A DNA stretch of 64,000 nucleotides from Eremomyces bilateralis CBS 781.70. Its lineage: Eukaryota. The notes beneath the pieces were generated by a model. The model was given only the letters and a program-made list of their open reading frames with translations, had not been told where the DNA came from and made no database searches. The position numbers and the translations under genes are program-made. Positions 1 to 30,589 of the stretch are shown in pieces. The DNA lies in NCBI GenBank assembly GCA_010015585.1, contig ML975156.1. One strand, given 5' to 3'. Within the stretch, counting starts at the first letter, position 1. The number at the start of each line of letters is the position of its first letter.

Positions 1-1504
1 TGCTATTCGTCCGGCTGTGTGCCCGGCTGTGTGCCCGGCTGTGCGAGCGCGACCCTGCATTCTGCCGCGCCTCGTCCATCTCCAGGGCCAGTCGGTCCGG
101 GTCAGGCGTGACGGCCGGCTGCAGGAACTCGCCGGAGGGGTTCTTCATGACCTCGTCGCCGGCGAGGATCGGGTGGATATCATCGTCGCCGGTGACGCTT
201 TCGGGGCGGATACCGATGGCGTCGGGCGACGGCTCATACGCGGTGCCGCACATGTAGCTGCCACGCCGGGAGTCGCGGACGTGGATGACATCCTCGTCGT
301 GGTCTTCGTGATCGGAGTCGATGGCGTGGTCGTGCTTGAGGCGGGAGACGGGGTCGGTATCGCTGGCGGGAAAGCTCATTTGGTGGAGGGGGGACTCGAC
401 GTGCACGTCTTGGCCGCTGCTGGAGCGGGGTTTGCCGCCTGCTGAGGGAGGGCGGGGGGACGCGATGCGGGACGCATACTCCTCGGCGGCGCGGTTTCCG
501 ATTTCTTCGTCGGGGGTGCCGACGGGCCCGGAACCTGAATGAGCATCGGTTAGAAAAGTTGGGTAGGAGTAACCGTAAGACTCACCACTTCCGACCGCCC
601 GCTTCGCGCTCCCATAGACCAATTCATTCAACTCCGTACTACTCAAATGCCAATCCTTCCGATCCGCCGAAATGGCCGGTCCGTATTCTCCCTCCGTCTC
701 CCTCGCCAACTCCTCCGGATGCTTCTGATACCACTGCTTCTCAATCTTGGTTATCTTCGGCCCAAAGCCGTGTCCATGCATCCCATAACTGCCCGGCGGT
801 CCAGTAAACGGATCCGGAGCGGCGGTCTTGCGCGACAACTGCGGCAAACTCGTCGCCGAGTGATTTGATGGGCCTAGAGTCGGGGTAGGTGCTTGTACGT
901 CGCCAGCATTCTTGTACAGCGGGATTTGAACACCAATTTCGGGAATGCCTTCTTCCGCGTCGTCTTTGTAGATCGACGCCGGGCGACTGCTCTGGCTATG
1001 GGACGACGTGGTCCGCGCCAAAGAAGGTCGTTCAGGAACGGACGGGCGTTCGTCGATGTCACCGACCGCCTTGCCGATGCCCGCCGCCGCCGCTTGTTGG
1101 GAGTCTGTGCGCGTGACGTTCTGGATGCGCGACTTCGCGGTGGACGACGCGAACGACGCTTTCGGGGCGTGAAGCGGGAGGTCCTCGGCGATGTTTTTCG
1201 TCTGCTCGCCGGGCGGCGTCCCGAAGGACATGTTGTCGTACTCTTCGCCTTCGTGGCCGATGGTCGGCAGGTTCACGCTTGGGGGGCGTTGGGGGAATTC
1301 TTGAGAACTCTGTTTTGAGAGGGAGAGTCCGTTTTTGTTGTGGAACGTCGGGTCGTTGAGGGGAGAGCGCGTGTAGGAGCGCTCCTCAGCGACTTCCGTC
1401 GTGCGTTTCGGACGAGCCGGAATGCAAGGGGCGTCGTTGTTGGTGGAATTGCCGGAGGATTGGCCATTTCGAGATGGACGAGGGGGGATGGTAGGAACCG
1501 TCAT
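1..1504 (-). CDS. Aim21-like (DUF3210-type) low-complexity protein, 3' end runs off the window
   Basis: Manual translation from ATG 1504: MTVPTIPPRPSRNG...QRPPSVNLPTIGHEGEEYDNM...RKDWHLSSTELNELVYG, GTGAGT..CTAAC..CAG intron ~536-585, then GTPDEEIG. Motifs resemble filamentous-fungal Aim21 homologues. Absent from the ORF track, probably because the frame has no stop inside the window. Confidence 0.7.
   Translation of the reverse strand, partial: MTVPTIPPRPSRNGQSSGNSTNNDAPCIPARPKRTTEVAEERSYTRSPLNDPTFHNKNGLSLSKQSSQEFPQRPPSVNLPTIGHEGEEYDNMSFGTPPGEQTKNIAEDLPLHAPKASFASSTAKSRIQNVTRTDSQQAAAAGIGKAVGDIDERPSVPERPSLARTTSSHSQSSRPASIYKDDAEEGIPEIGVQIPLYKNAGDVQAPTPTLGPSNHSATSLPQLSRKTAAPDPFTGPPGSYGMHGHGFGPKITKIEKQWYQKHPEELARETEGEYGPAISADRKDWHLSSTELNELVYGSAKRAVGSGESYGYSYPTFLTDAHSGSGPVGTPDEEIGNRAAEEYASRIASPRPPSAGGKPRSSSGQDVHVESPLHQMSFPASDTDPVSRLKHDHAIDSDHEDHDEDVIHVRDSRRGSYMCGTAYEPSPDAIGIRPESVTGDDDIHPILAGDEVMKNPSGEFLQPAVTPDPDRLALEMDEARQNAGSRSHSRAHSRAHSRTNS
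12..43. repeat. 12-bp tandem repeat in coding sequence (ccggctgtgtgc x~3)
   Basis: Encodes SHSRAHSRAHSR on the minus strand. Confidence 0.8.
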
Positions 1505-1836
1505 TGTATAGATATCGTAGTGGAGTTCGGGATTCGTTTAGAGGGATAATAGTGTTAGGGGAAGATAGATTCGTTGATTAAATGGATGGTAGAAAATGAA
1601 AACGGAACTGGAAAGCGAGTCAGCAGCTTGCCTTGCGTGTCCGAAACGTCAACAGCTGGGAAAAGTGTTGGTATCGTTGCGATCTAGATAAGGCCCTGGT
1701 TGTAGTTGAGCCGCCAATGAGCGCGGTCGAGATGGGGATCACGCTGCAGGCACATGCACCAGGCCTGGCAGACTCGAGAGCATTGATATGGAATCAAAGG
1801 TCGGTGAGAGAGGCATCCTCCTTGCCTTGTCGCGGT

Positions 1837-1914
1837 TGAGGCATTAAAGTGTCTTAGTTGATTGATTGAAGCTCAACAGAATCTTGCTCGCAATAACTAA
1901 CTCTCAATGCCTCA
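1837..1914 (-). other. Imperfect ~78-nt hairpin, possible ncRNA/milRNA precursor
   Basis: TGAGGCATT 1837-1845 pairs with AATGCCTCA 1906-1914; TTAGTT 1854-1859 with AACTAA 1895-1900; ATTG/CAAT inside. Confidence 0.4.
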
Positions 1915-3786
1915 GTGCTGGAGGTCTCATCCAATGCGACCAGCAATTTGACGCATGACAGCCTGGAGCCAGGTCCAGGTCACGGTCATTGCTGTTTGCC
2001 CCGAGCCTCTTCATCGCGGGGTGCTGCCGATCCGATGGTTCTGGTGGTGACGTAGCACAACATTGGGGTTGACACTCAACTGGCAGGGCAAGGGAAGGAT
2101 ATGCGGTGAAGGTAGAAGATAGCAACACTTACCAAGATTCTCAAAGCAAAAAGGGCTAATTAGGAGTGGTCGTGGAAGTCAATCATCAGAATAATGATGA
2201 TGGTGATGATGATGATGTGGTGATAGAGGATGTAGAAGAAGTGGTGGTGATTAAGAACGATTCAACGACGAAAGGATTCAAGGAGCAAGAAGTCGAGCAA
2301 GTGGGCCTTTGGAGGGACTGAGCTATTTAAGAGACAATTGGATTTTCAATAAGGAAAACTGGATGAATCATTACAGTGAATTGTTGGCAGAGTGGGAAGC
2401 ATCGTGAGTGGCAGGACTGGGGGGTGTGACGATGCAACGCCATGAGAATCACAGCTGGCGTCATTGGTGGCCCACCGACCGAAGATTAGTGCCTAGAGGC
2501 CTAAGGCAGCTCCACCGCCCGCCCCAGACCGTCTGCACATCAAACCAGAAACTGGTGCGTCTAGATTGCACGATACACCCGCTACCACTGAATTGTCCAT
2601 GTGCCTAATGGCCCGAGAGCTGAGAGCTGAGAGATGTGGAAGGGGCATCATGCATGAAATCGCGCATTTTTAATTAAGACATAGATGAGCGATACTGCGT
2701 CAAATCCCTATCTATTAACTATGCCCAAATCCCTCATAGTAACGACACAGGCAGCCGCAATATTTTACCCGTCACCCGTCGCCGCACCAATTTCCATCAA
2801 ATCGCGCATCCATCCAAAACTCACGATAGCCCAACGGGCCCCCCAAAAAGGCAGACTCGGAAAACTCACGGCTTAAAGAAGCCAAAAGATTCCATCGCAT
2901 CACGGGGGCGACGCCTGCCAAGGCGTAGGGGCCATCCGCCCCGCTTCCCGGCTCCACCTGCATCACGATCGTGGCTGATGTGGAAATCTCTGCAAAGTGC
3001 AAACGCGGAAGGGCAGAAGGGCGCATTTGATTCGGTGCGGGAGAGGGCGGTTTGCACGGGATCAGCAGGTTTGGGTGCCGCCTTGCCGGTCGCGTTGGAT
3101 CACTCATAGATGGGGAGGGTGGCCAATTGGATGGAGAGGTTGGGAAGCGATGTTAGATGGATCGTGATGCATGAATGAAATTGGAAAGGTCAGCGGGTTG
3201 GAAGCTGGCTCGCCTGTTTAGGAGTTACAGCTTCTGGGTAGGTGCTCTGTAATGCCTACAAATTGCCGACTGGCGGAGGTACCACAGTGTGACTGGAGAT
3301 ATCGTAAGTAGGTAAGTTATGGAGCTGGTCGGCGAGATTCCTCGATCCGTCCTTTCTCTTCAGATTTCAACGTCCTGTGTTGCTAGCTCAGCTTCTCCGC
3401 AATCCACATCCTCGCGCTGCAGAAATAGTAGCGCCATGCAACGTGAACTTGTGAGGGTAGCGCCATCGAACCACGTGCCCCACAGAACTACCACAAGTGC
3501 ACGAGGAGAGATGCGTCTCCTAGCAAATCCTCACCCGAGCCGCTGTCGGTTGGTTCAGACTGCTGACTGGCATCAGGCTGTCAGCACTTGGCAAGACCGA
3601 AAGTCTGTTGCCGGCGGTCACGCTTGAAGGGACGCCAGCATTGATGGACGAAGTTCGGACTGTCGACCTTGATTTCATGTGAGCTATCTGTGGGTGAAAA
3701 TGTTTGACAGATCTGTGTACTTAAGTCATTGATGACGAAGCATTGAGAAAAACGGGTTTAGGAAATCAGGTATCGCTGGAGAACGC

Positions 3787-3819
3787 ATTGGTTTCGGTCA
3801 ACATTGGTTTCGGTCAACT
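3787..3819. repeat. 16-bp tandem duplication (cattggtttcggtcaa x2)
   Basis: Exact direct repeat seen in intergenic DNA. Confidence 0.85.
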
Positions 3820-6800
3820 GGGAAAGCTTTGATGGGATTCAGGCATTCAGCCCAACATGATCGGAGAAAAATTCATCAGAGGTCGGTGTGTGCTTCGCAG
3901 TGGTGTTGGTTTGGACATCGTTCCAAACCCCCCAAAAAACCAAAAAAATTATTCCGTGTCTTCGTCATCCAAGAGCGAACGAGCTTGATAAGACATCTCG
4001 ATTCTCGAGTGGATTGTCGACTGTCGTCACTCGTCCCCATTCATGTTGCAAGCGTCAGCCCCGCATTCTCGGTTTCTCACAGACAGCATGGGATCACTAG
4101 CGCATCGAGGATGTGTCGATCGGATATGCATGCGTACGATATACGATATACGACGGCTGGGGTATTGACCGGTCTGGTATGCCGTACCCTTAGGTTACAG
4201 ATACAATCCAAAGTTGCCGGCCACCATGTCCCATCCCGTCGTTGGGTTCTCGTAAACTTTTTCGTTTTCACCGTTTGATGCAAGTCGCAACGTGGCGCTC
4301 TCGCTGGAGACTAGTATCCTGCATACTTGGAAAGGGGGGAACGAGGTGGTAAAAGGTAGGAATACAGAATGCTAGCTTACGAGGTTGCGGAGGTCTCGAT
4401 GAGGAGGTTGATCAGGTCACTGGTGCCGCCGGTGCCGCTTGGTTCTTAGAAATCAATAAATGCGGATGGGTTCACAGTGAGTTTAGATGTGCATGGCAGA
4501 GAGTTAGAGCAAGTTCTCAACAAGTCTGCCGTTTCTTTGTTGGAGGATGCAAGGTGAACGTCCACCAATGGCGGACGAGTACATGCCTATGCAGCGATTT
4601 TGTGCTCGGGACCATCTCCCTCGTAGGTTCAGACCGTTACGTTCCTGGTTCGGAATATCCCCTATTATCATGCTGTATCCTTCCATCTAGAGTCGCTTAA
4701 TTTCCTCACCTCTATCCTCCCTTCGATCCAAAATTCGATAACTTTGTTTAGAGACGTTGCACACCATCCACGTGGGGTCCTATCGCCGTGTGGCCCATTC
4801 CGCCACGCAACGATTCCCCTTGAAGCTTCGCGCCAACCGCAATCAAGCTATAACCAAGCGCCTAGCAATGACCATCCATGCGTGTGACAGGCATGGCCGC
4901 TGCCATTATCCAATCAATGTCATTCCTGCCCACATCCGATTATGGGACCCTGGCCGGTGCCTGTTGACGAAACCACGAACATGTGTGGGGTAGTGGGAGA
5001 AAGGAACCATTCAATATTCATGGTTGGGGAAAGGATGTTGCCATACCAGATTAGGAGAGATTATTGGAGGGAGAAGCGCTCCTTGCGTACTGGGGAGGAA
5101 TTCCACTTTCAGCGCTCAATTTACAACATCAGGGTTCTAACGAATATTTGTTTGAGTCGTTGGGCACCGTCATCCCAATTGGCCATACATGTGAAGAGTA
5201 AAAGCTTGAGACACGGGAGGAAAAGGGAGAGAAAACGGATATGGTTTCAGCTCTGTCCTTACTCTCACCGAAGAATATCTGCTCCATCTACAGAATACAG
5301 TAAATGAGCTTCGACGAAGACGCTTTCCTTAGGAACCGCCCTTTGTGCAATATCCTGGGGGCTGGGCCATGTGGAGGAAATAAGGTTGGCTTGGCGAGGC
5401 TTAGCATTTCTTGGCGTATGGATATTGTGATTCTTGAAGTGGGACACTTGACACTTCCCCTGCCGTTCGACCTTCACGTTCCACTGTTCTACGGTCTCGT
5501 TCAACGTCCTTTCCACTACCATTACTTCAATGTATCTCCTAAATTATATCCTCATGGCCGCCATCCCTCCTGGATTGGAATGATGTTATTCTCTACAAGC
5601 CAGTGAGCATTGCTCTCAGTATAGGAACCTCGGTTACCATATGGTTTCATTGGTACAAACTAGAAGCATCGTGGTTCCTTCGCTATCTTAGCTTCGTTCC
5701 CCGGATTTCTTAGTTCTCTCCGCATCTCTGGCTGCATGTCAGCCGATTGGTCCCCGATTGTGTGCTCGTATTCTTGTGCGTTGTGCCTCACATCCATGGT
5801 GCCGGATAGGGGATGGCGGATGACATTCTTTTACCCAGTTCAACCTTCCAATAACCCAGTTCGTGTCAACTGACAGCTACAAAACGTTGAGTTCCGAGCT
5901 GGCATAACCGTACCTAGATCGCGCCATTTGCTGGGTTACCGTGAGAGCCGCGGCCTGCTGTTCTGGGATCAGAGCATTACTGGCGAATAATCAGACTTCC
6001 CTGGCATTTATATCCCGCGACGCCTGCTTTCGCTTACCGGCAATCCGTACCATTCCCTGCGTCACCGACTCGCCTGGTCCCTCCAAAGATGGTGTACGGA
6101 CGTGGGGTACGGCAGATATGGCCTCCAGCCACCAATGACACGCAGCATATCTACATTTTCCCGTCTGGGCGAACAAACCGCGATTCAGGACTCTTTCAGA
6201 CTTTCCATTCTACTTGAAAGAAGTAATCGACTAAACAAGTCATTTTTCCATATTGCCTCGGAGCTTGGCGTTGTTTCGCGTCTGCCATTGGCTCAACACA
6301 CCCCTACCCCTCCATGAGATTTCAGGCGGCCGGCGCTCTTAGCCCAGAAACATAAAAGATGCCAAGCCGTGCACTTTTCGCGTTCGGTTCCGCTGCATAC
6401 GACGACCCTGCGCATGCACCACCGTGGGCTGAGAGATACCCACGCCAGCGACCCCTGTGCCCCATGGGGTAGTGTCAACGGAGTCCACTGACGAACGGGA
6501 ACCAAGTCTTAAAGTCGTTTCTAGAATCGTTCGGGCTAGAGCTGCTTGGCGACGCATTGCATACATGATTCATCTACCAGGAAATCACGGCGGTTGGGTA
6601 CGAGCAGGCGATGTTCTGGACGTCGTCGTGCGCCGCCCAGCCAGCAGAGGATCAAGCCAAGTCTACGAAATGAAACTAAAGGGCCGAGCGGGGTTGTGTG
6701 GCACGGTGGGATAGAGGGTGGATCTCTCCAGGGTCATGGCAACGACCGTAAGTACATTCTCTGTACATTTATAATATTGCTCATGGCCATCTATTTCTCT

Positions 6801-6878
6801 GTCTCCTTTACTTCAGGTCGAGTCGTCACTGTCGTTCCTTCCTTGCAGTCCCTTCCGCACTCTATCTGTCTTGCAATC

Positions 6879-8966
6879 ATGGGTCAATCCGACGTGGTAG
6901 ACCATCCGGAGAAGACCGAGACGGTGCAAACGGAGGTTGTCCCTACTCCTACTAGCAATGATGTTAGTTCTACTACATCAGAGACAGCTGGGGGTCCCCC
7001 CGGAATGACCAAGGCGAAGTGGCTCGCCTGTATAGCCTTGGCGCTGGGGTACACGACGACCTTCCAGCAATTTGCATGCACAGGATCTATTGTCAGGCAC
7101 ATCGATCTTGAGCTTGGTCATTCCCCTCAGTACAATTGGATGCTGGCAGTATATACGCTAGGTCTAGCTGTATGCTTGCCCGTTACTGGTAATTTTGCCC
7201 TATTCTATACTTGAGGATTCATAACTAATTGTCCTAGGCGGTCTCTCCGATATCTTTGGACGTCGATGGTTTTTCATGGGTGGCTGCGTTGTATCCTTAA
7301 TTGGAACTATCGTCTCAGTGCGAGCCGACGCCGTAAACATGGTGATTGGAGGTATGGCTCTGAAGGGCATTGGGGCTGCCGCGCAACAACTCGCGTAAGT
7401 CTCGAATTACGGTGCAGAGCCCACTTTCTCTAATGCCTTGCAGGGTGGCCGGTATTGCTGAGATCGTCCCAAATAAGCATCGAGGCACGGCTCAAGCCAT
7501 TCTGGACATTATCACCACCCCCTGGACCATGTTCGGCTCGCTCGCCGGCAATGCCATGGTCAAATACCACCATCTCACGTTCAGGATCAATTGGTATGTT
7601 GGGATTGCGCTGAATATTGTGACCCTGGTCATGGCATTCTTCTTCTACTTTCCGGTAAGTTCAATATGCGCTGGAGTCCCATGGAAATGACTGACATCCA
7701 CCATAGCCGCACCATCCGAACTCGCATGGCAAGTCAAAGCGTCAGCAATTCTACGAAATTGACTGGATCGGTGTTGCTCTTTGGGCCGTAAGTCTTGTCT
7801 CCAACCGACCTCGCTTTGGATGTTAACGGCGACCCTAGTCCGGGCTCACTATGCTTCTCGTCGGTATCTCCTTTGGAGGCGTGTCGTATCCATGGAAATC
7901 TGCTATTGTCCTCTGCCTGATCCTGATTGGTGCCGCTCTTCTCTTCGTTATGGGCATGTGGGAATGGAAATTTGCACCGAACCCCTTCATGGACCGGTCC
8001 CTGTTTTCCCGCGGCCGCACGTTCAGTCTGGTCCTGGTGATCATCTTCGTCGCTGGTATGGGTCTGTATGCCGGCTCTGCATTCTGGCCCCAGCAGATCT
8101 CGTTCATGTACGATGAAGATCCGATCCGCATTGGTGTCCTCACCATCGCAGGTGGTGCCGGTGGTGCTAGTAAGTGCCAAAACACTCCCATCCGCGCATT
8201 CCGTCCCTATTCTAACCTCCCTCCCTCCAGCCGGTGGCTTCGTCAGCGGCATGATCATCGGCAAACACAAGTGGCTCAAAACCCACTGGTGCGTCCTCTT
8301 CGGCGTCTTCCTTAAAGTCGTCGGCCCCGCCGGCCTCACCACCCTCACCCCCGACACCCTCTCCCGCGCCCTCGGCCTCACCTTCCTGTCTGGCTGTGGC
8401 ACCGGCTGGGTCTCCGTCTCCCTGATCGTGTGCATCCAGCTCGCCTGTGACGACCACAACATCGGTCTCGCCTCCATGCTGATCGGCAGCTTCCGCGCGG
8501 CCGGCGGCACCGTCGCGCTGGCGATCTACAGTACCGTGCTCAGCAACAAGGTGCGCCAAGTCATCGGGAAGCATATCGGTGGCGCCGTCATCCCGATGGG
8601 CGTGAAGCGGGAGGATCTGGCGCGGTTCATCACCGCGATCAGCGCGGGGGATATCAAGACCGCGCTGACTATCCCCGGAGCGAACGTCGAGGTGCTATTG
8701 GCGGCCAAGGAGGCCTCCAAGTGGGCCTATGCCGAGGGATTTAAGTACGTCCGATTTTCCGTTGCCGTAATACCCTCTAGTGGGAAACATGACTGACTAA
8801 CCGTCATAGGGCCCTCTACATCACGGCCTTGAGCTTCGCGGCGTTCGCTTTCGTCGTCACGCTCTTCACGAAGGACGTGTCGAAGAACATGACCTCGCAT
8901 GTAGCCGTGCGCCTGGAGAATGAGGCGCCTGTCTCTGATGATGAGAAGGAGAAAGCGTTAGCGTAG
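6879..8966 (+). CDS. MFS transporter, TRI12/fungal trichothecene efflux pump-like family
   Basis: About 7 exons of hydrophobic helices; MFS motif GGLSDIFGRRWF, AEIVPNKHRG, C-terminal KNMTSHVAVRLE; canonical GT-AG introns. Confidence 0.9.
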
Positions 8967-9866
8967 GACAGAAGCGCATGGGTTAGGACGGAGGGAAACG
9001 TCTCGCCTGCACTGGGTCGATGTAGGTCAAAACATTGAATAAAGGAACCAAGGAATCAATATTACTATGGGAACTCTAATACTTTCACGATCATGTCGAA
9101 CCCTTTTTTACATTTCTAAGCCGTCCATAATTTGCTATTGTGACACTCGGTCAATAACACATGTCAGCAGGTGCTTGAATTAGACCATTCTTCGGTTTTC
9201 CGCCAGTCTGCCTTTTTATCCGTTCCGTGATTGGTATTTCATGTCCCAGCACCTCAGTAGGCGGAGTTGTGAAGGAGCCCGAGATCAGCCATCTCGATTC
9301 ACCTCCTCTTCCGAGGGTATTTCGCCAATGGAGCGATCTCACCAGCACCCAGGATGCTAGACCATGCCCTTCATCTAGATCTACGATAATTATATGGCTC
9401 CAATACGAGATGTTCCATCCGCATCTAGACCTTCATCAAGTATATTGCTATTAGCAGCCACAAAGTGAACGCCCTAGCTGTTTCATGTGATCCCGTTGGT
9501 CAGCCATATATGAGCGCATTGAGCGAAAGGGGTCCGGCTATAGCAGCCTTGGGTCGAACGATTGTTTCTGGTGGACGGGATGGCGGATTAAAAAAGGTCG
9601 GATCCTGATAGGCGAGTTGGAGAACAATAGGTCGCTTAGCGGAAATTGGCACGCGGCATTCACAAGCCCCAAGAAAAGCTTACGTCGTCCTCCCCTCTTT
9701 CCACGGTAAAAGAATTTTTCAAAGCTGAACGGCTGAATTGAGGCAGAACAGATGTCATCAAGCGGTAAAGCCCGATGTATCTCCTTAGCCAATAGCTCTC
9801 TCAACATTTCTATATATTGTCACCGATCACCGTGCGAGGAAGATTCTCATTGTTATCCAGAAGCGC

Positions 9867-12014
9867 TCAGGTACGTTTTGCGAACAACGTCTTGGTCTGT
9901 GAATTGAACGACGTCACGCTCTTCACGCGCTTGATGAACTCGCCCGTCTGATCGCTCGAAATGCGGCCACGGAACACTTCCAAGAGCCCCTTAAGCGCGA
10001 TGCCTTCTGCTGGGATGGCGTTGCGGATGTCTTCGACGGTGGGGATTGCTGGGATGTGTGTTAATCATCTACGCGGCTTTCATGAAGTTTATATGGAGCT
10101 TGAGATGAGTGTCGAGAGAGGATGCTGGGTACTTACGTCGCTTCTCGGGACTGGCCGCCCGCGCTGCACCAGGGGCAGGGCTCGCTGCGCGGGAACCAAT
10201 TGGCGTCCCCGTGCGCGATGGACGCTGCATTTTCGAAACTTTCCGGCGTCCACCGTCGGTCGTTTCACTGTCACTTCCAGAGGCGGCGGCACCGGAGAAA
10301 GACCCTTGGCGCGACGCGGCGAGGGAGGTTGGCTTGGGCGAGTGTGGCCGCGACGGGATCCTCGTGACAGGTGGTTGCGCGGGCATGTGGCTCTGCTTGA
10401 GGCGCTTGCGGACGGACTCGCTGTCGCTGGCGTCGGAGAGGTTGGGGGATCCGGGGCGTTTGAGGGATGCGGCGGCGGTGAGGGGCTCGCCGTGTTTTGA
10501 GGCGCGGCCGGAGGGGGTGTTGCTGCCGGTGTTGGCTCCAGAAAGTCGGTCGGTGTCTTTGCCTTTGTCGTCCTCTCCAGCCGCTTTCTTAGCTGCCTCT
10601 TCTTCCGCACGCTTGCGCTCCTCCTCTTCGGAATCGTCGCTGTCGCTCTGGTGGGTTATGTCAATACCAAGAACTTAGGAAACGGGATGAAAAGGGAGCT
10701 GGTTAAAGGAAGTAATGGTGGACTAACAGATGCAAAATAAGGGTTGCCATCCTCATCTTCGAGATAGGCGTTATTTCGTTCCTTCTTCCATAATGACTTT
10801 TTCAACTTCTTCTCCAGCTCCCTCTGTCGCTCCTCTGCCCTTTGTCGATTTTGTTCCTCTCTCTCGACCTCCTGCTCATCCGTCAAGCCGAATACGTTAG
10901 CCTGGCGCTGCTCTTTGAAAATCGCTTCTTCCGCCTCTTTCCGGGTCTCTTCATCTTCGCCAAACAGATCGCCTTCATCATCGTCATCAAAGTCGGCCTT
11001 CATGTCGAAGTCGAAATCGTGATCATTCCCAGCACCCGCCTCCTCTGTAACACGCTGTGTATCGGGCCTGGATACCACAAAACCGCGCCCACGCTCCGAG
11101 TCCTTGCTCCGTTGCTTGGAAGCAGCCATTTGGTCCTCGGCCTCTTGGACGAACCGGGGACCTTTGTACTTCTTCTTCATCTCCGCTTCCGCTTCGTCAT
11201 ATGTCATTGTTTTCATCTTTCCAACCTCACGGAACTTGTAGAATTTCTCGACTGGCATGACTCGGTATTGCCCTTGCTGAGTTGGACCGGGTTCGCGGAC
11301 CATTACGATAAATTGATCCACGAGACCACCTTCATAGGCACCGCGCCACGTATGCTGGTTATCGAAGTCTTCCAGATGCCACGGAATGGATTCTTCGTAC
11401 CGCAATTGACTTCGCTTCTGCTGTTCGGGTGTCTCGTTGAGTTCGTATGCCGACACGGCCGTAGCCTTCCGTCGCGTATTCTGCTGCTTTTGTGTCTTTG
11501 TTGATGGTGCGATCTGGGCTAGATTCTCGTCCCGGATGCGCTTCCTTTCCGCCTTGACCGCCTCAATCCGCTCGCGTTCCTGATCTGCTTCCGCGATCTC
11601 CTTGGTGTCCACATCCATGGTTTCCCCGCCAGGCATAATAGCCTGCAGGTCTCGCCGATGGAGCCGGACTGGTCGGGTCCATTCATCTTGATTCGTAGGG
11701 TCGACCGTCTGATTGCCTTGCAAGCGCATGAGATGATGCCGTAGCCCTTTCAGTATCGCCCGTTTCGTCGTGAAGACAGGAATGTCTCGGAATTTGACGT
11801 CAGGTTCATCCTTGACTCGGGGTTGGGAAGTAGTCGGGCCGTTTGCTGGTGGTGCCGGAGGGGTGCCAGTTTTCGGTCTCGGTCTTGCTGTAGGAGGTCC
11901 TCTCTGGCCAGGCTTTGGGCGGGTAATCAAAGGATTTGCCTTTGGCTTTCGTCGATATACAGGCGCGCCTCCATTGGGGGTAGAGCCGGGAGGGCCTGCT
12001 GGCGAGGCGCTCAT
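9867..12014 (-). CDS. tfg1: Transcription initiation factor TFIIF large subunit (Tfg1/RAP74)
   Basis: RPVRLHRRD, RYEESIPWHLEDFD, PVEKFYKF, acidic DFDDDDEG tract; C-terminal small domain IPTVEDIRNAIPAEGI after introns; stop at 9867. Confidence 0.9.
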
Positions 12015-12213
12015 TGCCTAAGACTGAAGTGTATCGATGGACAGCAAGCAGTTGAAGGGTGTTTGGATATCGTCCTGGAAAAGCAAATATGAGAAAGACC
12101 TGTGGGCCAAGGTGAAATTGTTAAATTGTTTGCAGAAAGGAGGATTCACGTTGGATGTGGAATGTTCATTGATTAACTCCAGGAACGGATTGACATCTGA
12201 GTGCTGAGGTCAC

Positions 12214-12264: not shown

Positions 12265-12480
12265 ATCGCCTGAGGCAGAGAGCCTCAGAGCCAGAGGGCA
12301 GAGAGGGCGAGGGATAGGGCGAGAGCGGAGATGTCAGGGGGCAGACAGAGGCTGAGAGCCGAGAGAGGGCAGAGAGGGCGGAGAGGCTCAGAGCCGTCAG
12401 AGCCTCAGAGGCTGAGAGCCGTGAGAGCCTGAGAGCCTGAGAGGGCAGGAGGGCTAGAGGGTAGAGGGCCAGAGGGCGGC
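12265..12480. repeat. Degenerate 8-9 bp purine-rich minisatellite (AGAGCC/AGAGGGC cores)
   Basis: Many units such as tcagagcc, tgagagcc, agagagggc in tandem. Confidence 0.8.
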
Positions 12481-12603
12481 GCACTTATTTTTGTCTGTGG
12501 CACAGATATAAATTGCTAGCGCAGACCGCCTACAGTTTACTATCACTTATGATTTTGCGAACCATCTCATCAAAGAGCATCGTTATGTTTTCACCCGACT
12601 ATT

Positions 12604-13637
12604 ATGGCAGCAGCTTCCTCTCCACAGCATCAGCGCCCTAGAGGCTACCATTTGCTTTCTCGATTAATGGGAAGGTCGGAAGAACTTGCCGTCTTCCGCA
12701 AGTTCAACGATTTAAACGCTATCAGTTTGTTGAGTCTTCAAGCTGAATTGGTCCTGTTGAGAGATGAATATCATAATATTTGTGAAAGTGACGAAAAAGA
12801 CGGAAGACCGTACTCAAGGAACTTCGAGAAACTTTTCCAGTCAAAGGATGATGTTACCAATGATCAATATCTCCAGCTATTGAAAATTAGAGAGAAGATG
12901 AAGGAGTATAGTAAGCAAATGTTCCCGTAATTGGCTGAAATTATTATCACCTTCATCTGACTATTATACAGATGCATTTCTACTTCAAGGTGCGCCGTCA
13001 GTGACTTTGATTTCGACGGAAAGACTCATCTATAGCAGTTGCCTCGATTCGAAACATCCACAAGCCACGAGCGAGTGACCTTGAAAAACTCCAGGAATGG
13101 CTGCGGGATCCTAAGGGGGGCAATAGGTTTCTTGCAGAGAATGAAGCCTTTACTTGGTCTAATGAGTACAAAACAGACTTCGCGACGTTAGCAACCTCAA
13201 CCCCTGATGACGACATCTTTACAAATTGGCTTGTATCTTCACTAGTAAAATTGTACCACAGAGTCTGGGGTCACAGACACCCCCTCCACAGTTCCAAATT
13301 TATTGATGAAGAGAGCGGCTTAATTATGTATCACGATGGAAAGGTCGCTAGGGTCAGCAAAATTATCTCAACCACTTTGGCATCGATATTTCCGGTCATC
13401 GCTGTGCTTGGACTATATTTTGAAAAGGACTTGTTGAAGAGGATATATATCATGATTGGAATTACTGGAGCATTTTCCCTTGTCTTGTCGATTTTTAGCC
13501 AGGCTAGACGCGTGGAAATATTTGCTGTAACTACAGCGTAAGTATTACTACCTTTAGTTGAAATGGCGCTGACCTGGTTCAGGCTAGCAGCTGTGGAAGT
13601 CGTATTCATTGGCAGCACAACATCTCCTGGGGTCTGA
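12604..13637 (+). CDS. DUF6594-family membrane protein (helical N-terminus, ~3 C-terminal TM helices)
   Basis: RGYHLLSRLM..LAVFRKFNDLNAISLLSLQAEL, KIREKMKEY/NAFLLQ, LQEWLRDPKGGNRFL, C-terminal RRVEIFAVTTA/LAAVEVVFIG; three introns (~12911-12971, ~12990-13035, ~13538-13582) restore the frame; TATA-like tatataaa at ~12506. Confidence 0.85.
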
Positions 13638-14406
13638 GATTTTGGGACCATTCACTCTCACAACTAATACAACTCCTAGAAATTTCCTTGAGAAAATGGA
13701 AATTTTCTACTGCTGAAGGCATTCAACTAAACCTTTTGCTATTTATCGACGAAAGAATACATATTAATAGAAGGCTTTGAACAGGTCACAACGACTTAAG
13801 ATGATCCATCGGTGTATTCCTAACCAGCTTTGGACTCGTCTAAGAGAGAGTGAGCGTGGATCCCAATCCCAATTCTTCTGTTTCCAGCGTAAAAGAGACG
13901 ACGGCAGATTGGCCGCCAGAATGGCAGATTTGCTAACCGTGCACGCTCATTGGTTGATGCCCATTGTCCGAAGATTTCCCGCCTGCTTCGACCTCACATA
14001 TAAATTGCGTATTCCACCATTCCCTCTTCTTCCCCTTCCCTCTACCCCTAAACCCCTCAACTACTGCGGCGACCGAGAATCTACGACCGCTCTTCATTCT
14101 TCGCTTGCTCCCCACCCCCCCTGCGTGTCTAGTTTCGCTACGTTTCCTAGCCGCCGCACTCCCTCCGGATCGCCGTCCTAAGTGTTATACTCTATCTATA
14201 CGGCGCTTCGGTCTCTTCTACTGGGTATTTCATTCTTAAGGAGCTCGTCTATCTGGATTACCAGATACGCCTTGATTCGCACTGGTCTGAGGCCATAAGG
14301 CCAATTCTTCCTGAGGCCGCCAGGCCATAACCAACAGTCTAGGCATACTGCCCAAAACTCTTACAGAGTAAGCAAATCGCCGATATTTAGAAGCTCACCT
14401 CAGGTC

Positions 14407-15715
14407 TTAGGAGCTCCCCTGTGTCTGAGAGGCGCTGGAAGAGCTCACTTGAACTTTCGCATATCTGTTCTTATCTCTTTCAATCTTCTGTGCATCTGCT
14501 TTCTCCTTCTTCCGCTTAGCCGCTTCGATCATCTGGTACTCCTCGTGAATCCTTTCCTGTTCCTTTTCGACTTACTGAAGTCAGAAACAAGAGATCTATT
14601 ATTAGAATTCCAACTCACCTGTAGACTTCTTTCTCATTTGCAATATAAGAGCTCTGCTAGCGGTGTCGCCCCGACCAGAAGTTCGGGAACCGATCCTGAA
14701 ATCCCAGGGGAGTATGATATCAAACTCCGTGTCCGTGTTATCGTCGACAAAGAATTCTGTTCGTAAGGTATTATAGTTTCTGTTCACATACCATGTAAGT
14801 GAGATGCTTTGACTTGGCCTGAATGTTGCACCGCCAATGCCGTTTAAGACCTTATTCTCAACGTTCTGAAATTCAGAGCTGGGTATCTCGTCTCGCTGGA
14901 GAAGGCTTTTCGAAATGAAAAATTCCTCACTTCCAGTGTCTTTGAGAGCTCTTGCCGGGATGTACTTTATTCCGGACCCTGTTTGAAAGGCTATGGTGAC
15001 ATCATATCCATAATGAGACCTTGCCGAAATCGGCCCCAGACCAAGTGTCTTGCTGTCAACAGGCACTTTGACAGTTGAGCTTCTGAAGTCTTCGAGGTGG
15101 ACTCCCGTTTCTTCCTCAAAATCTTCCGGGTTCCAATGCTGTATATCATCGGAGTTCACTTCTGTTTCTAGCTGCTCTGCAACTTCGGTTCTTTAGACCC
15201 ATATTTAGTATCATGCACAATATAAGTAGAGGCAACGTACATGACAGAATTAAGCTGCTGACGAACTTGAATGCTTTGCAAACGTCAAAGAGGTTTGTTT
15301 AGGGTAAGATAAGCTCTTACTGTTGGCTCAAGTCCCGTAGCAAAAGCACAGAATCCCGGAATGCTTCGAAGGCCATTCTTCGTTTGGTTCTTCTCATAGA
15401 CACTGCCGCCATGCGAAACCGTCTTATTTCTGGATGTTTGACCCGATATGCTTTCTGATCGCGTGATATCAAATCATAAAATTCTTCATGGCGCTGGGCG
15501 CAGAGTAACATCGCTCCCTGCATCGATTTTGGAACCTTCTCGTACTTCGATACTCCGTGGAAGGCTTCTTCTGCAACACGAAGAATCACTTCGTACTCGG
15601 AAACCTGTCGATCAAGCTCGGCAATGCCCTTGCGCGCATTTCGGCCTGCACGGATGAATTGATCCAGGAGAGCAATGCTGGAACCCACTAGGGCAAAGAC
15701 TTCAATGCCTGACAT
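14407..15715 (-). CDS. Helical N-terminal domain + retropepsin-like aspartic protease domain + C-terminal coiled coil (~385 aa, 4 exons)
   Basis: ORFs 15317-15715 and 14602-15159 join in frame via a 33-nt exon (HIQVRQQLNSVI); ARALKDTGSEEFFIS (D-T-G at 14932-14940), LNGIGG flap-like motif, FFV..FDIILPWDF; last exon EKEQERIHEEYQMIEAAKRKKEKAD..., stop 14407 (assumes an AAG acceptor). Confidence 0.75.
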
Positions 15716-16585
15716 AGCTTTTACAAAGACGTAAAAACGTCGGTCTCACGGTCTCATGCTTGATAGGAAGTATGGCAGGAGAAAAAAATAATGGAGCCTG
15801 ACGAGTGACTTGAGCATCAAAGGAAGGGAAGCGTATGTAATGCCCTGATGAGGGAAAAATTCAAAACTCCGGTCAGCTCAAATACTCCGCCCTCTGGTTA
15901 AACGGCTCTCCGCAAATGACAACGCACTAAAGGCTGAATCAAGTCGCTGAGCCAACAAAAAGCATTTAAAGGGAGGGTTAGGCTCGGCATGTTGCCCATT
16001 GATTCGCTCAGAGTAATCCACTGCCACTTCTTCTGCAGCTCATGCACAGACCCCTTCGGCTTCTGTAGATCTAGACTGGGCTATGCTGCTATGTACCTCT
16101 TCTATACAGTCACAGGCACTTTAATTGGCGGCAGAGGCTGAGAGGCTGCAGAGGCAGCGAATCAGGCGCACGGACCAATATGATCCTGATATCTCAACCG
16201 CTGGCGAACGATTCATTCAACTGCACCACCATCTGTTATTGAAGAACAAAGCCATTATGATATTCATTACGTGTGATAAGAGGGCAATTGGGCCAAAATT
16301 ATTGGCTCCCTTGAACGACTGCTTATATGAGATTGCTGACAGTGTTCAAAATCGTCTCTAGAAAGCTCTCATGCGTGTGCCGTTTAGCATCACCCTAAAC
16401 CACCGCATTATCAGAACTGAAAAGTGACTGACACGGCGAGGCTTGAGGCCTTGTACAGATAGCTTACTGTTCCTTTTTATTTCACTTGAGCATTGTCTCT
16501 CAGTCTTTCTCCACGTTCCTTCATTCTCCCTCGCTTTCTTGTCATTATATCCCAACAAAAGGGGTACGGCAATCCACTGGCCTCA

Positions 16586-18709
16586 ATGGATAACTCACAA
16601 GGTGGTCAACTTCCTCGTGGAGGATATCCTCCTCATCCACATCTTCAGCACTCTACTGCTCCGCTTCAACCTCCGGGCTTGCCTATTTTGCCAGCTCAAT
16701 ATGCAGCTGGTTCATTCAACAATGCTCCAAGTCCATCACAGCAAGCGTCAGCCCCTCCTCAACACGCAGTGCAACACCCACATGCAATTGGGTTAGGCCC
16801 GCAATATGATCGGGGTGAACTCAGCATGGAGGCTCCTCCAGTTTCAGATTGGCCATATCTTCAACCGAGAACGCAGCAACAACAACGATTCCCATCCGCT
16901 CCCGCACAACCTTACACAGGTGCCCAGTCGCGATTTCAACGCGCCCCTCTACCTAGTAGCATCCATCAAACTGCACCTCGCATAGCGACTGCAGAAATTA
17001 AACAAATGCCACCTACTCATCCTAATCACTTCACAAACACGTTCTCGCAACCCAACAGAGGATCTCACTTCCACCGGAATCCTCCACGACACCCCCGAAA
17101 CGCGCCGCCCCGAAGAATGGCAGGTGCTGGAGGCTCCAGCTGGGTGCCATGGTATGAACATGCCAGTCCCGTCCTTTATCTGGAGCAGCTCCTTGGAAAT
17201 GTCCTTAAAGAAGTGGACATGCCGCTGGAAGAACGAGATGCAAAGTTGAAATTTGCGGATCGATTGCAGTCGCTGACGCAAAAGGCTATTCTCAAAGAAT
17301 ATCCAAACACTCATACAAATGTTGCCCTTCGCGGCTTCGGAAGCTTTGCGTCCGGGTTCGCCCTCAAGGGTTCAGACATGGACATGGTCCTCATGATTAA
17401 TGGACCTGATAAAGAGAAGCTCAATTTCAAAGACATCGCAAACGCTCTTAAGCAATCGTTTAAAGCGGATGGCCTAGGTGTCTATATCATCTCTAACACA
17501 CGAGTTCCCATCATCAAGATTTGCGAAAAACCGCCGGCGTGGTTCTGGGAAGAGCAGGAGAAGCTCGAAACACAAGCTGCTGTGGAGGCTAGTGCGTTCA
17601 AGGCGGGGGATGGCAAAAATGTCGTTGGCGATGGTGCTAATAACTCTGAAACTTCGCATTCGATGACGAATGCAGGAGTCTCAGGGGAACACAGTAGCGA
17701 ATCGGAAGCTGAAGACGAGGAGGAAAAGGAGGCAAGATTGCGTCGCAAACGGGTGACCGAAATGGCAAATAAGACGAATGCGCCCAAAAACTCCAAAGTG
17801 TGGTACCGTGAACGCAAACTGGGCAAGAGCGATTTCCCGAAATCCGACGCCGGAATCCTCTGCGACATTAACATGGACAATCCCATGGGCCTGGAGAACA
17901 CCCACCTCCTCCGCTGCTATGCGGCCTGCGATGTTCGCGTTCACCCAATGGCCACCTTCGTCAAAGCCTGGGCATCTCGGCGCAAGATCAACAGCTCCCG
18001 CGACGGAACGCTATCATCGTATGGCTACGTCCTCATGGTTATCCACTTTCTCGTGCACATCATCCAGCCTCCCGTCCTCCCGAACCTCCAACATCCACAA
18101 GACTGGCCAGGCCTCCAAGACCTCCTCCACGACGAGCAGAGTCAATTCTTCGCCGACGCCATCAATGGTCACTGGATCCACTACGTCCGCAACGTCGACG
18201 CGCTGAACTATTACGGCAGCAAAAACATCTCCCCGAACACCATGCCCGTCGGCCGCCTCCTCACCGAATTCTTCTCCTACTATGGCGACCCGATCTCCGG
18301 CGGCCATAGCTGGCAAGGCCACGTCATCTCGCTCCGCACACGACACGGCGGGGTGCTCGACAAGGGGGAGATGGGGTGGAACCGGGCGACGTCCGAGATG
18401 GTGAACGGCATCGAGGTCCGGCAGCGGTATCTCCTCGCGATCGAGGACCCGTTCGAGACGAACCATAATGTGGGGCGAACCGTGACGAACGAGGGCGCGG
18501 GGGTGATGCGGAGGGAGTTCAAGCGCGCAGTGTCGATACTGAGGGGGATGATCGGGCGTGGGACGCCGAGGGAGGATTTGATGGAGGAGTGGGTGGATAA
18601 GGTGGTAGTGGATGAGGGGGGGCAGGGTGAGGGGAACGTTGGCAGGGGACCGGTGGCGACGGACGGTCCGCTTAGCATCACGGCGTCGCTGGCGAGGATT
18701 GGGATGTGA
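16586..18709 (+). CDS. Cid1-family non-canonical poly(A) polymerase / terminal uridylyltransferase
   Basis: FGSFASGFALKGSDMDM, TRVPIIK, CDIN, GTLSSYGYVLMVIHFL, LAIEDPFETNHNVGR; intronless; Q/P-rich N-terminus. Confidence 0.9.
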   Translation: MDNSQGGQLPRGGYPPHPHLQHSTAPLQPPGLPILPAQYAAGSFNNAPSPSQQASAPPQHAVQHPHAIGLGPQYDRGELSMEAPPVSDWPYLQPRTQQQQRFPSAPAQPYTGAQSRFQRAPLPSSIHQTAPRIATAEIKQMPPTHPNHFTNTFSQPNRGSHFHRNPPRHPRNAPPRRMAGAGGSSWVPWYEHASPVLYLEQLLGNVLKEVDMPLEERDAKLKFADRLQSLTQKAILKEYPNTHTNVALRGFGSFASGFALKGSDMDMVLMINGPDKEKLNFKDIANALKQSFKADGLGVYIISNTRVPIIKICEKPPAWFWEEQEKLETQAAVEASAFKAGDGKNVVGDGANNSETSHSMTNAGVSGEHSSESEAEDEEEKEARLRRKRVTEMANKTNAPKNSKVWYRERKLGKSDFPKSDAGILCDINMDNPMGLENTHLLRCYAACDVRVHPMATFVKAWASRRKINSSRDGTLSSYGYVLMVIHFLVHIIQPPVLPNLQHPQDWPGLQDLLHDEQSQFFADAINGHWIHYVRNVDALNYYGSKNISPNTMPVGRLLTEFFSYYGDPISGGHSWQGHVISLRTRHGGVLDKGEMGWNRATSEMVNGIEVRQRYLLAIEDPFETNHNVGRTVTNEGAGVMRREFKRAVSILRGMIGRGTPREDLMEEWVDKVVVDEGGQGEGNVGRGPVATDGPLSITASLARIGM

Positions 18710-27509: not shown

Positions 27510-28007
27510 ATGATGATGTTCTTCGTCTCCCTCATTACCCTCATCTTGGCCGTATCAGCCATCTCTATCCTGTGCGTCTCACTCTGAACTGGCGCCTATA
27601 AAGCACCAACTAACCACTCCAGTGAACCCCGCCAATCGTGCTCAAAAGCCCTGGCCGACGAATACATCTTCACCCTCACCCTCTCCGCCTTCCTCCTCGT
27701 CCGCGCCTCCCAAACCCCCTCCTGCTTCGACTGGACCTCCAACAACTGCACCGTGGCCCCCGACAACCCGTTCGGCTACCCGTTCAAGCACGCCTGCCAG
27801 CGCCATGACTTCGGATACCGCAACTACAAGAAGCTCGACGTCTTCACGGAGCCGAATCGGCTGAGGCTCGATGACAAGTTCAAGGAGGATTTGTATGATA
27901 TTTGTGGGGACGACGCGGGTTGTACGGGGTTGGCGGACGTCTACTACGGGGCGGTTAGGGTGTGTGGGGATGGGAATTGCTTTGATATAGAAGATGAAGC
28001 GGTATAA
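27510..28007 (+). CDS. Secreted phospholipase A2 (fungal/actinobacterial group XIV type)
   Basis: Signal peptide MMMFFVSLITLILAVSA, intron ~27572-27622, FDWTSNNCTVAPDNPFGYPFKHACQRHDFGYRNYK with catalytic HD dyad. Confidence 0.92.
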
Positions 28008-28899
28008 TGAGGCTGCTGCGATTTCATTATCAACCAGAGGATTCATTTTGAAAGATGACGAGCACTACTGTATTAACCAGTCTGCTGAATCTTTTGACTC
28101 CGATGTTTGGCAGATCCCCAAATACTAGGAAGCACGGTCAGTAATCGAAAAGGGGGAGGGGCACGAGAGGCCTATCCACGCACTTAAAGTTGCCTATATT
28201 ATTCAACAGTGTTCCCTAATCTGTGGATCAATGTTGATATTGCCTGCTGAATTGCAAGGGATACTGTCTTGATCCTTGAGTGCCTTGCTGCTTGCCATCA
28301 AGCCAATCACTCACATTATGCCTCGCCGCCTTTGGATATACAGATTATAGGGGCCTCTTGCTAGTCAAATCAGTCGGTAGTTCAAGGGAATCTATATAGT
28401 TCGTATGCTATAGGTCCTCTAGACCACCGCAACTGCCCGGTACAATAATAAGGGATTTTGTCAACAGCACAAATGGGTTTGCCGCCCTTTCGGATCCTAC
28501 TGGTAAAAGGGGAATTGAGGGATTCCGGAATACTTTACCCTCAAGTGTCATCAATATTTTTGATTGATCGTATTGTATGCCGTCTGGTGATGGCTCTGGG
28601 CGGCGGAAGCTCGACATACTGGCACGGGAATAATACAAATGCCACGTTCAATTTTCATAGTTCTTTAGACTACATAACTAATGAGTGTTGATATTCATAA
28701 TTCTATAGGGCAGGCGTCGACAACTGACCGTAGCAAGGTGGATATGCTCTTCACAGTGATAGATAGATTGCCAGTCGAATGGCCAATTGTTGTGGTACAG
28801 GTATGGTAAGCGGGTAGTACTACAGTCGCTAATTGCCCGTTCCAGCAGCAACCTGCTCAGATGTTGTCTCATTTCCTGCCACCATGGACTGTTTCGCCC

Positions 28900-29900: not shown

Positions 29901-30589
29901 TAGAAAGGTCCCAGGTTCAGCCCATCTCTGGGTTTAGATTCGATTTCTGGTAGTCGAAGAGACTGGAGTGACGGATATTGATCTAGGTAGTGTAAAAGGA
30001 TATACTAAAGGAACTATGTTCAGGAAGATACTGGGCAACCAGAGATGGACAATATATATTAAGGGATACTGAGAACCAGTTTTCATATATAGAGATTGCT
30101 GAATGTAAGCTATATACCTAGGGGTAGTTAGATCAATATATGAAAGGAATTGAGTTGATGGTGACTCAGTACTTTTGCCTAAATTGGAAACCAGGTGAAT
30201 TTAGGAAAACAATGCCATTAAGGTAGTATTCGCTATATGACTCATTTATGTCAGCCATGATAGGAAGAACACATCACTTTGTCGATGTTTGTTGCCACTG
30301 ACGTTCCTCAACAAGGATTTCCAGCTAAAGGAAGGAGATTGCTTCAAGAAGCTTGCGCTATCTAGGATCTGCCCGGTCCACTAGCACCAACTACATGTAG
30401 AATAATGAAAAAGTGAAGGCGGTTCACAAATGCTGCTATCTGAGGGACAAATATTTACTTAACATCTTAACCTGTCACTTCAGTGCCAGTGCTATAGTAT
30501 CCACTCAACAGATCTCTCCGTTCATGCTGCACACATCTCCCTGCTAACTGAACTTGCTTCTCTCTTTATCCTACACGACGTTGAGATCA

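Follow-up and report, generated by a model that had tools for sequence, protein, structure and literature searches.

We analyzed a 64,000-nucleotide (nt) stretch of contig ML975156.1 (assembly GCA_010015585.1) from the fungus Eremomyces bilateralis CBS 781.70, which is referred to below as the window. Between tfg1 and a Cid1-like gene, the window contains an AT-richer block with two convergent genes, here designated gene A and gene B. Gene A encodes a DUF6594 protein with predicted C-terminal transmembrane (TM) helices, and gene B encodes a protein with a predicted retropepsin-fold domain. A reading of the DNA made earlier without database searches (the original prediction) had described the block as a candidate protease-activated cell-death or immunity module. 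The two genes are neighbors in several fungi that are not related to one another, which makes a joint function probable.

Structure of the two genes

A 1,546-nt contig of run X1 skipped exactly nucleotides 15320–15274, 15240–15191 and 14618–14571 (CT..AC ends on the plus strand), and thereby bore out the four-exon structure of gene B that the original prediction had assembled by hand. Both genes occur as spliced contigs in this run. Because six introns, counted over both genes, were removed exactly at GT..AG, we read the contigs as complementary DNA (cDNA); the run is marked “RNA?” by guess only, and the splicing is the basis of the cDNA reading. The contigs cover gene A out to position 14097 and gene B from position 14149, and are uninformative on transcript ends and levels. 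The stop codons of the two genes are 770 bp apart.

The gene B product starts with MSGIEVFALVGSSIALL, contains KDTGSEE and FDIILP, and ends in a tail of 54 residues, 40% of which are charged (12 K+R and 10 D+E). The helical N-terminus, the D-T-G domain and the charged tail described in the original prediction are therefore all present in the 387-amino acid (aa) product. Only the 3′ splice site at 14570, the one used by the X1 contig, puts the tail in frame. The public model of this protease-like protein, P0001 (327 aa), matches exons 1 and 3 letter for letter, but it is wrong elsewhere: it omits the 33-nt micro-exon (15273–15241, 11 residues) and reads through the intron 14618–14571, so that the entire charged tail is lost. 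Similar tails were found in the relatives P0003, P0005, P0009, P0022 and P0033. Full-length relatives (P0003, P0057, P0022, P0033 and others) share an N-terminal domain with the motif AFxAFRDSVLLLRDL, a linker motif W-[DN]-P...E-x-T-G upstream of the protease domain, and the sequence ALIL-x-x-R-K-K after the protease core, followed by the charged tail. These features are best explained by a cytosolic gene B protein in which an N-terminal helical bundle is followed by an acidic linker, a retropepsin-fold domain of a single lobe and, at the end, a helical tail that is charged.

In gene A, the 3′ splice site at 13039 was set by the run X1 contig and by identity of the product to the public protein P0048. 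The coordinates of both genes and of the surrounding features are given in Table 1.

Table 1. Positions of the genes, domains and flanking features in the window
Feature	Position	Strand	Basis or remark
Gene A, DUF6594 protein, 292 aa, identical to P0048	12604..13637	+	Pfam PF20237, spliced contig
Gene A exons	12604-12910, 12972-12989, 13039-13537, 13583-13637	+	second exon is an 18-nt micro-exon; stop included
Membrane part at the C-terminus of gene A (three hydrophobic helices)	13243..13637	+	interrupted by intron 13538-13582
Gene B, 387 aa, four exons	14407..15715	-	spliced contig of run X1
Gene B exons	15715-15321, 15273-15241, 15190-14619, 14570-14407	-	second exon is a 33-nt micro-exon; stop included
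Gene B N-terminal helical bundle (~aa 1-145)	15241..15715	-	AlphaFold2
Gene B retropepsin-fold domain	14671..15018	-	P0001 residues ~190-305
D-T-G triplet, D216-T217-G218 (P0001 numbering)	14932..14940	-	family alignment
Second retropepsin motif F-D-I-I-L-P	14707..14724	-	Pro in place of retropepsin Gly
Gene B charged C-terminal tail (VEKEQERIHEEYQMIEAAKRKKEK...)	14410..14570	-	exon 4
Two-gene low-GC island, 0.452 GC	12487..15879		between tfg1 and the Cid1-like gene
Left copy of inverted 11-mer CCAGAGGGCGG	12469..12479	+	at island edge
Right copy of inverted 11-mer CCAGAGGGCGG	15887..15897	-	at island edge
Left flank, open reading frame (ORF) of TFIIF-alpha (tfg1)	10656-12017	-	TFIIF_alpha match, E 1.4e-6
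Right flank, ORF of the Cid1 family	16490-18709	+	MTPAP-like_central, E 3e-20; PAP_assoc, E 1.6e-13

Predicted domains of the two proteins

The AlphaFold2 model of gene B, built with a 54-row alignment, had a mean predicted local distance difference test (pLDDT) value of 82.8 and contained a beta domain at residues 190–305, with a pLDDT of ~90 over residues 190–300. In Foldseek, every top match of this domain was either a Ddi1 RVP domain or a retroviral protease (E from 4.8e-4, probability 1.00). The VIA search gave a Z of 8.8 to the proteases of equine infectious anemia virus (EIAV), Mason-Pfizer monkey virus (M-PMV) and Rous sarcoma virus (RSV), with a root-mean-square deviation of 2.4–4.2 over 89–108 residues, and structural matches in the Atlas had TM-scores of 0.58–0.65 to RVP_2 clusters. 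When the family profile was compared with the sequences of the PDB, all six matches were Ddi1 (best E 0.007), and the profile alignment placed D-T-G on D-S-G of Leishmania Ddi1 and FD-I-L-L-G on MD-L-I-I-G. In the 54-row alignment, the triplet has Asp in 54/54 members, Thr or Ser in 52/54 and Gly in 50/54, and Asp289 of the second motif is present in 51 of the 54. The invariant catalytic-position Asp suggests that the chemistry is retained and not the scaffold alone. UniRef names P0001 “Peptidase A2 domain-containing”. Among 1.84 billion representatives scanned, 47 relatives of gene B were found at E ≤0.001, 16 of them at ≤1e-10, while a word-based homologue search with P0001, a method of low reach, returned P0001 alone. 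The retropepsin fold of gene B is thus supported by the modelled structure together with the invariant Asp; the assignment is weak by sequence and convincing only with the fold. The retropepsin-like domain, which the original prediction had proposed, and with it an aspartic-protease fold, was therefore recovered in the model.

The N-terminal domain was predicted as a long bundle of three to four helices (residues 4–56, 63–90, 95–107 and 109–142) with pLDDT mostly >90, and hydrophobicity along the gene B protein peaks in the first of them (best Kyte-Doolittle window at residues 3–21, 1.56). The original prediction had read this start as that of a HeLo-like domain as found in STAND (signal transduction ATPases with numerous domains) proteins. 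In a language-model look-up (Atlas), the N-domain was nearest to Ascomycota clusters (score 0.94, 184 shared features), 11–24% of whose members carry PigL_N or SesA, and UniRef names the relative P0033 “Fungal N-terminal domain-containing”. However, exon 1 of the window protein gave no match to Pfam PigL_N, HeLo or SesA at E ≤1, and the best PigL_N match in seven gene B relatives had an E of 0.076 (P0046). The 50 top VIA matches of the N-domain were generic helical bundles (Z ≤10.2), with no HeLo or MLKL entry among the matches listed, and a PDB sequence profile search with the domain found nothing. A STAND-type identity (HeLo-like, PigL_N or SesA) of the N-domain is accordingly kept as a lead only.

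Gene A was assigned to DUF6594 with confidence, because P0048 matched PF20237 over model positions 1–238 of 238 (E 1.1e-50; 173 bits, cut-off 30). The only stretches of the protein with a Kyte-Doolittle value ≥1.6 in 19-residue windows are three hydrophobic helices at aa 214–236, 240–264 and 266–288. In the AlphaFold2 model (57-row alignment, mean pLDDT 88, predicted TM-score 0.70), a helical N-domain precedes C-terminal helices at 208–235, 240–261 and 266–287. Kyte-Doolittle analysis and AlphaFold2 together are the basis on which the helices are called TM helices, and on this basis the DUF6594-type protein with C-terminal TM helices of the original prediction was upheld. The best explanation of the model is an N-domain that would be cytosolic and anchored by the three C-terminal TM helices. 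In the DUF6594 subfamily to which gene A belongs (A-type), a conserved segment, WGH...IDEESG..Y, separates the first TM helix from the cytosolic domain.

Foldseek found no PDB match for the DUF6594 model at E ≤0.001 (best E 0.7), and VIA returned a generic helical hairpin (Z ≤9.0). No gasdermin entry was among the Foldseek and VIA matches listed for gene A; these lists were filled by one helical hairpin (residues 32–115), so that a gasdermin fold is not excluded by them. In two relatives of gene A, P0080 and P0092, the TM region resembled VIT1/CCC1 iron transporters below the cut-off (E 0.014 and 0.006, respectively), and the Joint Genome Institute (JGI) names both proteins “VIT1/CCC1”. Charged residues beside the TM helices are conserved (R243, R266 and E268 in P0048 numbering). 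These similarities and charges may hint at an ion-related function.

Conservation of the gene pair and its genomic setting

Gene A has its best non-self relative in Lindgomyces ingoldianus (P0049, 50% identity), and the same species has the joint-best non-self relative of gene B (P0003, E 3e-32), which is also the closest full-length one. These two proteins have the consecutive accession numbers KAF2470010.1 and KAF2470011.1 in one record of 1,293,556 bp. The accession numbers of the window's own pair, KAF1812830.1 and KAF1812831.1, are likewise consecutive. A metagenome scan with nine close relatives of gene B yielded three further loci (L001, L002 and L003). In two of the three, an A-type DUF6594 gene was found on the opposite strand, ~283 bp (L001) and ~540 bp (L002) upstream of the gene B relative, with 45–68% and 38–46% identity to P0048 in the aligned segments, respectively. 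The two genes are divergent in L001 and L002 and convergent in the window. Thus, DUF6594 adjoins a gene B relative in three of the four loci seen as DNA, L003 being the exception.

Another 24 short contigs carry a gene B relative. Six of them (14248, 3623, 19565, 4150, 3409 and 16814 bp) are exactly as long as a contig on which an A-type DUF6594 protein is listed, and pairing on these six was deduced from the identical size in bp. The same deduction was right in both cases that could be checked on DNA (P0011 with P0051 on L002, and P0126 on L003), and a rough, uncomputed estimate puts the number of such chance coincidences below one. Adjacency was found in at least eight lineages (near-identical contigs counted once, size-inferred contigs included), comprising members with Pro as well as members with Gly at the second retropepsin motif (P0016, P0017), but L003 has no partner. 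Adjacency is kept down to ~30% identity for gene B and 35–45% for gene A. The pairwise identities of the two proteins co-vary, with r 0.91 over 11 pairs that include near-duplicates and r 0.59 (Mantel p 0.0045) over 8 distinct lineages; this co-variation is compatible with descent as a unit and is not strong by itself. Taken together, the L. ingoldianus accessions, the DNA of L001 and L002 and the six size-matched contigs support the conclusion that the two genes are a conserved pair and not a chance neighborhood. In filamentous ascomycetes, the pair is probably a two-gene module that has been conserved and inherited together.

The composition of the island sets it apart from its surroundings. 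No 3.4-kb window in the 64 kb is as low in GC as the island (window minimum 0.453, median 0.524). In 500-nt windows, GC was 0.41–0.45 at 12500–13999, as against 0.51–0.65 across most flanking windows, and GC at third codon positions (GC3) was 0.45 in gene A and 0.49 in gene B, compared with 0.50–0.72 in eight other long ORFs. GC content, the Pfam matches of the flanks and the gene models thus agree with the AT-rich block and its two convergent genes as first described. Within the 64 kb, just two sites match the 11-mer CCAGAGGGCGG exactly; these copies are inverted and bracket the island. With ≤1 mismatch, five matches were found against 1.5 expected, a number reached in 1 of 100 shuffles. The inverted 11-mer is suggestive of a transposon end, which is not thereby established; the pair of copies could be the footprint of an insertion or rearrangement, or a promoter element common to two divergent promoter regions. 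No long direct repeats were found flanking the island, and no transposase, reverse transcriptase (RT) or other mobility gene was found among the ORFs and Pfam matches of 12500–15900.

Several other features were noted in the window. The intergenic region between tfg1 and gene A (12381–12477) contains GA-rich tandem repeats with units GAGAGCCT and similar, and a related copy was found beyond the island, at 16132–16160. A stretch at ~28200–32000 (0.455 GC), the second lowest in GC of the window, is nearly as low as the island; it is flanked by a prokaryotic-type phospholipase A2 gene (27588–28004, E 2.6e-37) and an NDT80/PhoG-like gene (32084–33739), and no Pfam-recognizable ORF was found in it. 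An ORF fragment at 8041–8796 on the plus strand matches the TRI12 efflux-pump family of the major facilitator superfamily (MFS; E 1.4e-10).

Possible functions of the pair

We tentatively favor, at somewhat less than even confidence, a conserved module in which a dimeric gene B protease works on its DUF6594 partner. Retropepsins contribute one lobe per chain, and their active site therefore needs a homodimer. The gene B protease would accordingly work as a homodimer and not as a single chain, and two chains may be brought together by the tail, the N-bundle or both. The active dimer would then work at the membrane on the DUF6594 protein; that the protease acts on or with this protein is inferred from the conserved linkage alone. 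The likeliest cut would fall in the exposed juxtamembrane segment, WGH...IDEESG..Y, just before the first TM helix. Such a cut would detach the cytosolic domain from its anchor of three TM helices and thereby switch the state of the membrane protein. Regulated cell death, non-self recognition, or release of a signaling domain, as in the action of DDI2 on NRF1, are candidate outputs. A heteromer prediction for the L. ingoldianus pair (P0003 with P0049), run without supplied alignments, gave a score of 0.01 and a mark of 0.34 and is given no weight either way.

Two sets of observations weigh against this reading. The first concerns the protease. In the second motif, the column of the retropepsin Gly has Gly in 30/54 and Pro in 22/54 family members, and the window protein, with I-L-P, departs from the hydrophobic-hydrophobic-Gly pattern. 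The original prediction was correct in its caveat that DIILP stands in place of DIILG, and the departure extends to all 22 of these members, so that by alignment the Pro-type second motif defines a subgroup of the gene B family. Changes at this Gly inactivate HIV-1 protease, and the Pro-type subgroup may therefore be catalytically altered or dead. In addition, membership was judged with the Pfam models RVP, Asp_protease_2 and gag-asp_proteas at their curated cut-offs: RVP matched gene B at E 0.023 and 15.4 bits, under the cut-off of 20.7, and 10 of the 47 relatives had retropepsin-clan matches, none of which reached the cut-off (best 23.6 bits vs 24.3).

The second set concerns the pairing. 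The other 18 of the 24 short contigs are uninformative on the neighbor and do not count as negatives, because one contig is listed per protein and four are <2 kb. Of five genome records with a gene B relative, four (two Pestalotiopsis, Bathelium and Venustampulla) are likewise uninformative, and the fifth is that of Cenococcum. Cenococcum lists both genes on one 27.58-Mb record without adjacency information; on contig c3409, both Cenococcum genes have counterparts, with 76% and 94% identity. The rank correlation of identities over the 8 distinct lineages is weak (Spearman 0.35, p 0.065). The conservation count runs from gene B to gene A only, and many named genomes have A-type DUF6594 proteins. 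Finally, no DUF6594 gene was found within 10 kb on either side of the gene B relative in L003, which is 65–68% identical to that of L002; either the partner can thus be dispensed with, or this locus has lost it. No DUF6594 relic was detected in the upstream 9.5 kb of L003 by relaxed tblastn (E up to 50), blastn, or C/T- and G/A-collapsed k-mers. Four queries matched very weakly (E ≥6) near 4260–4433, to which no weight was given. Homology between L003 and L002 ends at the gene B start codon, and the upstream 9.5 kb has 24–34% GC. Two further features of L003 were noted: positions 1–9500 are without long ORFs and look degraded by repeat-induced point mutation (RIP), and a HET-domain ORF (14545–16371, E 2.4e-26) lies ~3 kb downstream of the gene B relative.

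The main rival explanation, which we consider rather doubtful, is that the two genes are a functional pair of another kind than protease and substrate. Gene B would then be the executioner or adaptor, with a HeLo-like N-bundle as an effector at membranes, the retropepsin domain would mainly dimerize or autoprocess and thereby free or unmask the N-bundle, and the DUF6594 protein would be a membrane receptor, inhibitor or antidote. The M-x-x-hydrophobic helix start, the proximity (0.94) to clusters with PigL_N/SesA, albeit in only 11–24% of members, and the UniRef name of P0033 all fit such an executioner. So do the replacement of the second-motif Gly by Pro in 22/54 members, the persistence of gene B without its partner in L003, and the conserved linker W-[DN]-P...E-x-T-G, which could be an autoprocessing or docking site. 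However, Pfam PigL_N, HeLo and SesA did not match the window protein and reached at best an E of 0.076 in the family (P0046), the fold search of the N-domain gave generic bundles (Z ≤10.2) and the PDB profile nothing, and the catalytic-position Asp, kept in 54/54, suggests retained chemistry.

It is unlikely that the two genes are linked without direct interplay, either co-regulated by a shared promoter or carried as passengers of a small mobile or horizontally moving segment, while they serve in different processes. The low GC and GC3 relative to the neighbors, the patchy distribution over distant classes and the exact inverted 11-mer CCAGAGGGCGG around the island are in keeping with passengers. 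The change from divergent to convergent orientation would likewise correspond to a circular permutation, as from a circular intermediate re-opened elsewhere. On the other hand, the island contains no transposase, RT or mobility gene, and L001 and L002 are too short to show flanks. Moreover, adjacency has survived an orientation rearrangement and extends to identities of ~30% and 35–45%, which is long for hitch-hiking alone.

Two other explanations carry little weight. DUF6594 is a large multi-copy family in Pezizomycotina, and single adjacencies to an unrelated gene could arise by chance, but a chance adjacency is highly improbable here and already contradicted by the same DUF6594 subfamily beside gene B in 3/4 DNA loci, in L. 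ingoldianus and on six size-matched contigs. That gene B is a decaying protease remnant of a long terminal repeat (LTR) retrotransposon, as its nearest structural clusters with retroelement RVP_2 and gag-asp_proteas domains might suggest, is barely credible for a four-exon spliced gene that is single-copy in the window, whose non-retroelement N-domain and tail are conserved in relatives, whose neighbor gene is conserved, and around which (12500–15900) there are no gag, RT or integrase ORFs or Pfam matches and no long flanking direct repeats. The original prediction had likewise described gene B as lacking gag/RT context, and no other Pfam family was found among the island ORFs.

The favored reading, a dimeric protease acting on DUF6594, can be compared with known systems. 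Ddi1 (DDI2), which is near-universal in eukaryotes, shares with gene B the single-lobe retropepsin fold, a cellular, non-retroelement setting, the D-[ST]-G triplet and, in 30/54 gene B family members, the hydrophobic-hydrophobic-Gly motif. It gave the best PDB matches of the gene B domain (Foldseek E 5e-4, TM-score by target 0.52–0.59) and the only ones of the family profile (6/6). In contrast, sequence identity in the structural alignments is just 13–18%, gene B has a fungal helical N-bundle and a charged tail instead of UBL, HDD and UBA domains, the window gene has Pro for the motif Gly, and the gene B family has few members and a patchy distribution (47 of 1.84 billion representatives). The bacterial retropepsin-like proteins APRc of Rickettsia and RloA of Pseudomonas, non-viral proteases that work at or near membranes, have a fold that is among the gene B matches (5c9b, Z 7.9; 9g58, E 4.5e-3), but their membrane or periplasmic part is on the same polypeptide, whereas here the membrane protein is encoded by a separate adjacent gene. 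The HeLo, HELL, SesA and PigL_N (PF17111) domains of fungal STAND proteins also have a hydrophobic first helix followed by a helical bundle, and the language-model clusters nearest to gene B carry PigL_N/SesA in a minority of members; unlike these proteins, gene B has no Pfam match to such a domain and no nucleotide-binding oligomerization (NOD) or repeat part after the bundle, and the fold searches of its N-domain gave generic bundles. A precedent for a retropepsin-type protease that acts on a membrane-anchored protein is the cleavage of endoplasmic reticulum (ER) membrane-bound NRF1 by DDI2, as reported in PMC5001836.

The gasdermin/protease clusters of fungi (het-Q1/het-Q2) were the model for the original prediction. 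A review (PMC12881547) puts >80% of fungal gasdermin genes in clusters with protease genes. As in our pair, a protease gene adjoins the gene of a membrane-acting protein, in a layout that is conserved across fungi. The proteases of those clusters, however, are serine (S8) or cysteine (CHAT) proteases, often with repeat or NLR modules, while gene B has no sensor repeats, and the partner here is predicted to be an integral, all-helical 3-TM DUF6594 protein and not a soluble gasdermin. The terms “aspartic” and “retrovir” do not occur in the accessible text of that 2025 review. Because DUF6594 would already be embedded in the membrane, with no soluble pro-toxin, the switch would differ from the release of a gasdermin fragment, and the analogy holds only loosely, in the gene arrangement. 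By analogy, gasdermin-like release of a membrane-damaging fragment is one possible output. The fuller proposal, a third class of protease-controlled membrane cell-death or non-self module in which a dimer-activated retropepsin with a HeLo-like bundle cuts a DUF6594 executioner or immunity protein, seems to us unlikely to hold in all its parts. As a whole, the module and the protease fold of the original interpretation are supported, while the HeLo-like N-domain is only a lead.

We found no paper on DUF6594 (PF20237/IPR046529), on retropepsins in Pezizomycotina or on a HeLo-like domain combined with an aspartyl protease, in a search from which subscription journals were mostly absent, and nothing on a retropepsin-DUF6594 pair among the titles listed by a broader query. 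The pair thus joins a small undescribed retropepsin-fold family to one branch of an uncharacterized membrane-protein family, in an arrangement akin to protease-linked two-gene modules. Considering that DUF6594 is a large fungal family, a dedicated retropepsin-fold partner offers the first concrete and testable approach to one of its branches. Should the pair serve in death or recognition, aspartic proteases would join serine and cysteine proteases in the control of fungal membrane effectors, the retropepsin fold would have a cellular use outside Ddi1 and retroelements, and one branch of DUF6594 would supply a new family of executioner or immunity proteins of the membrane.

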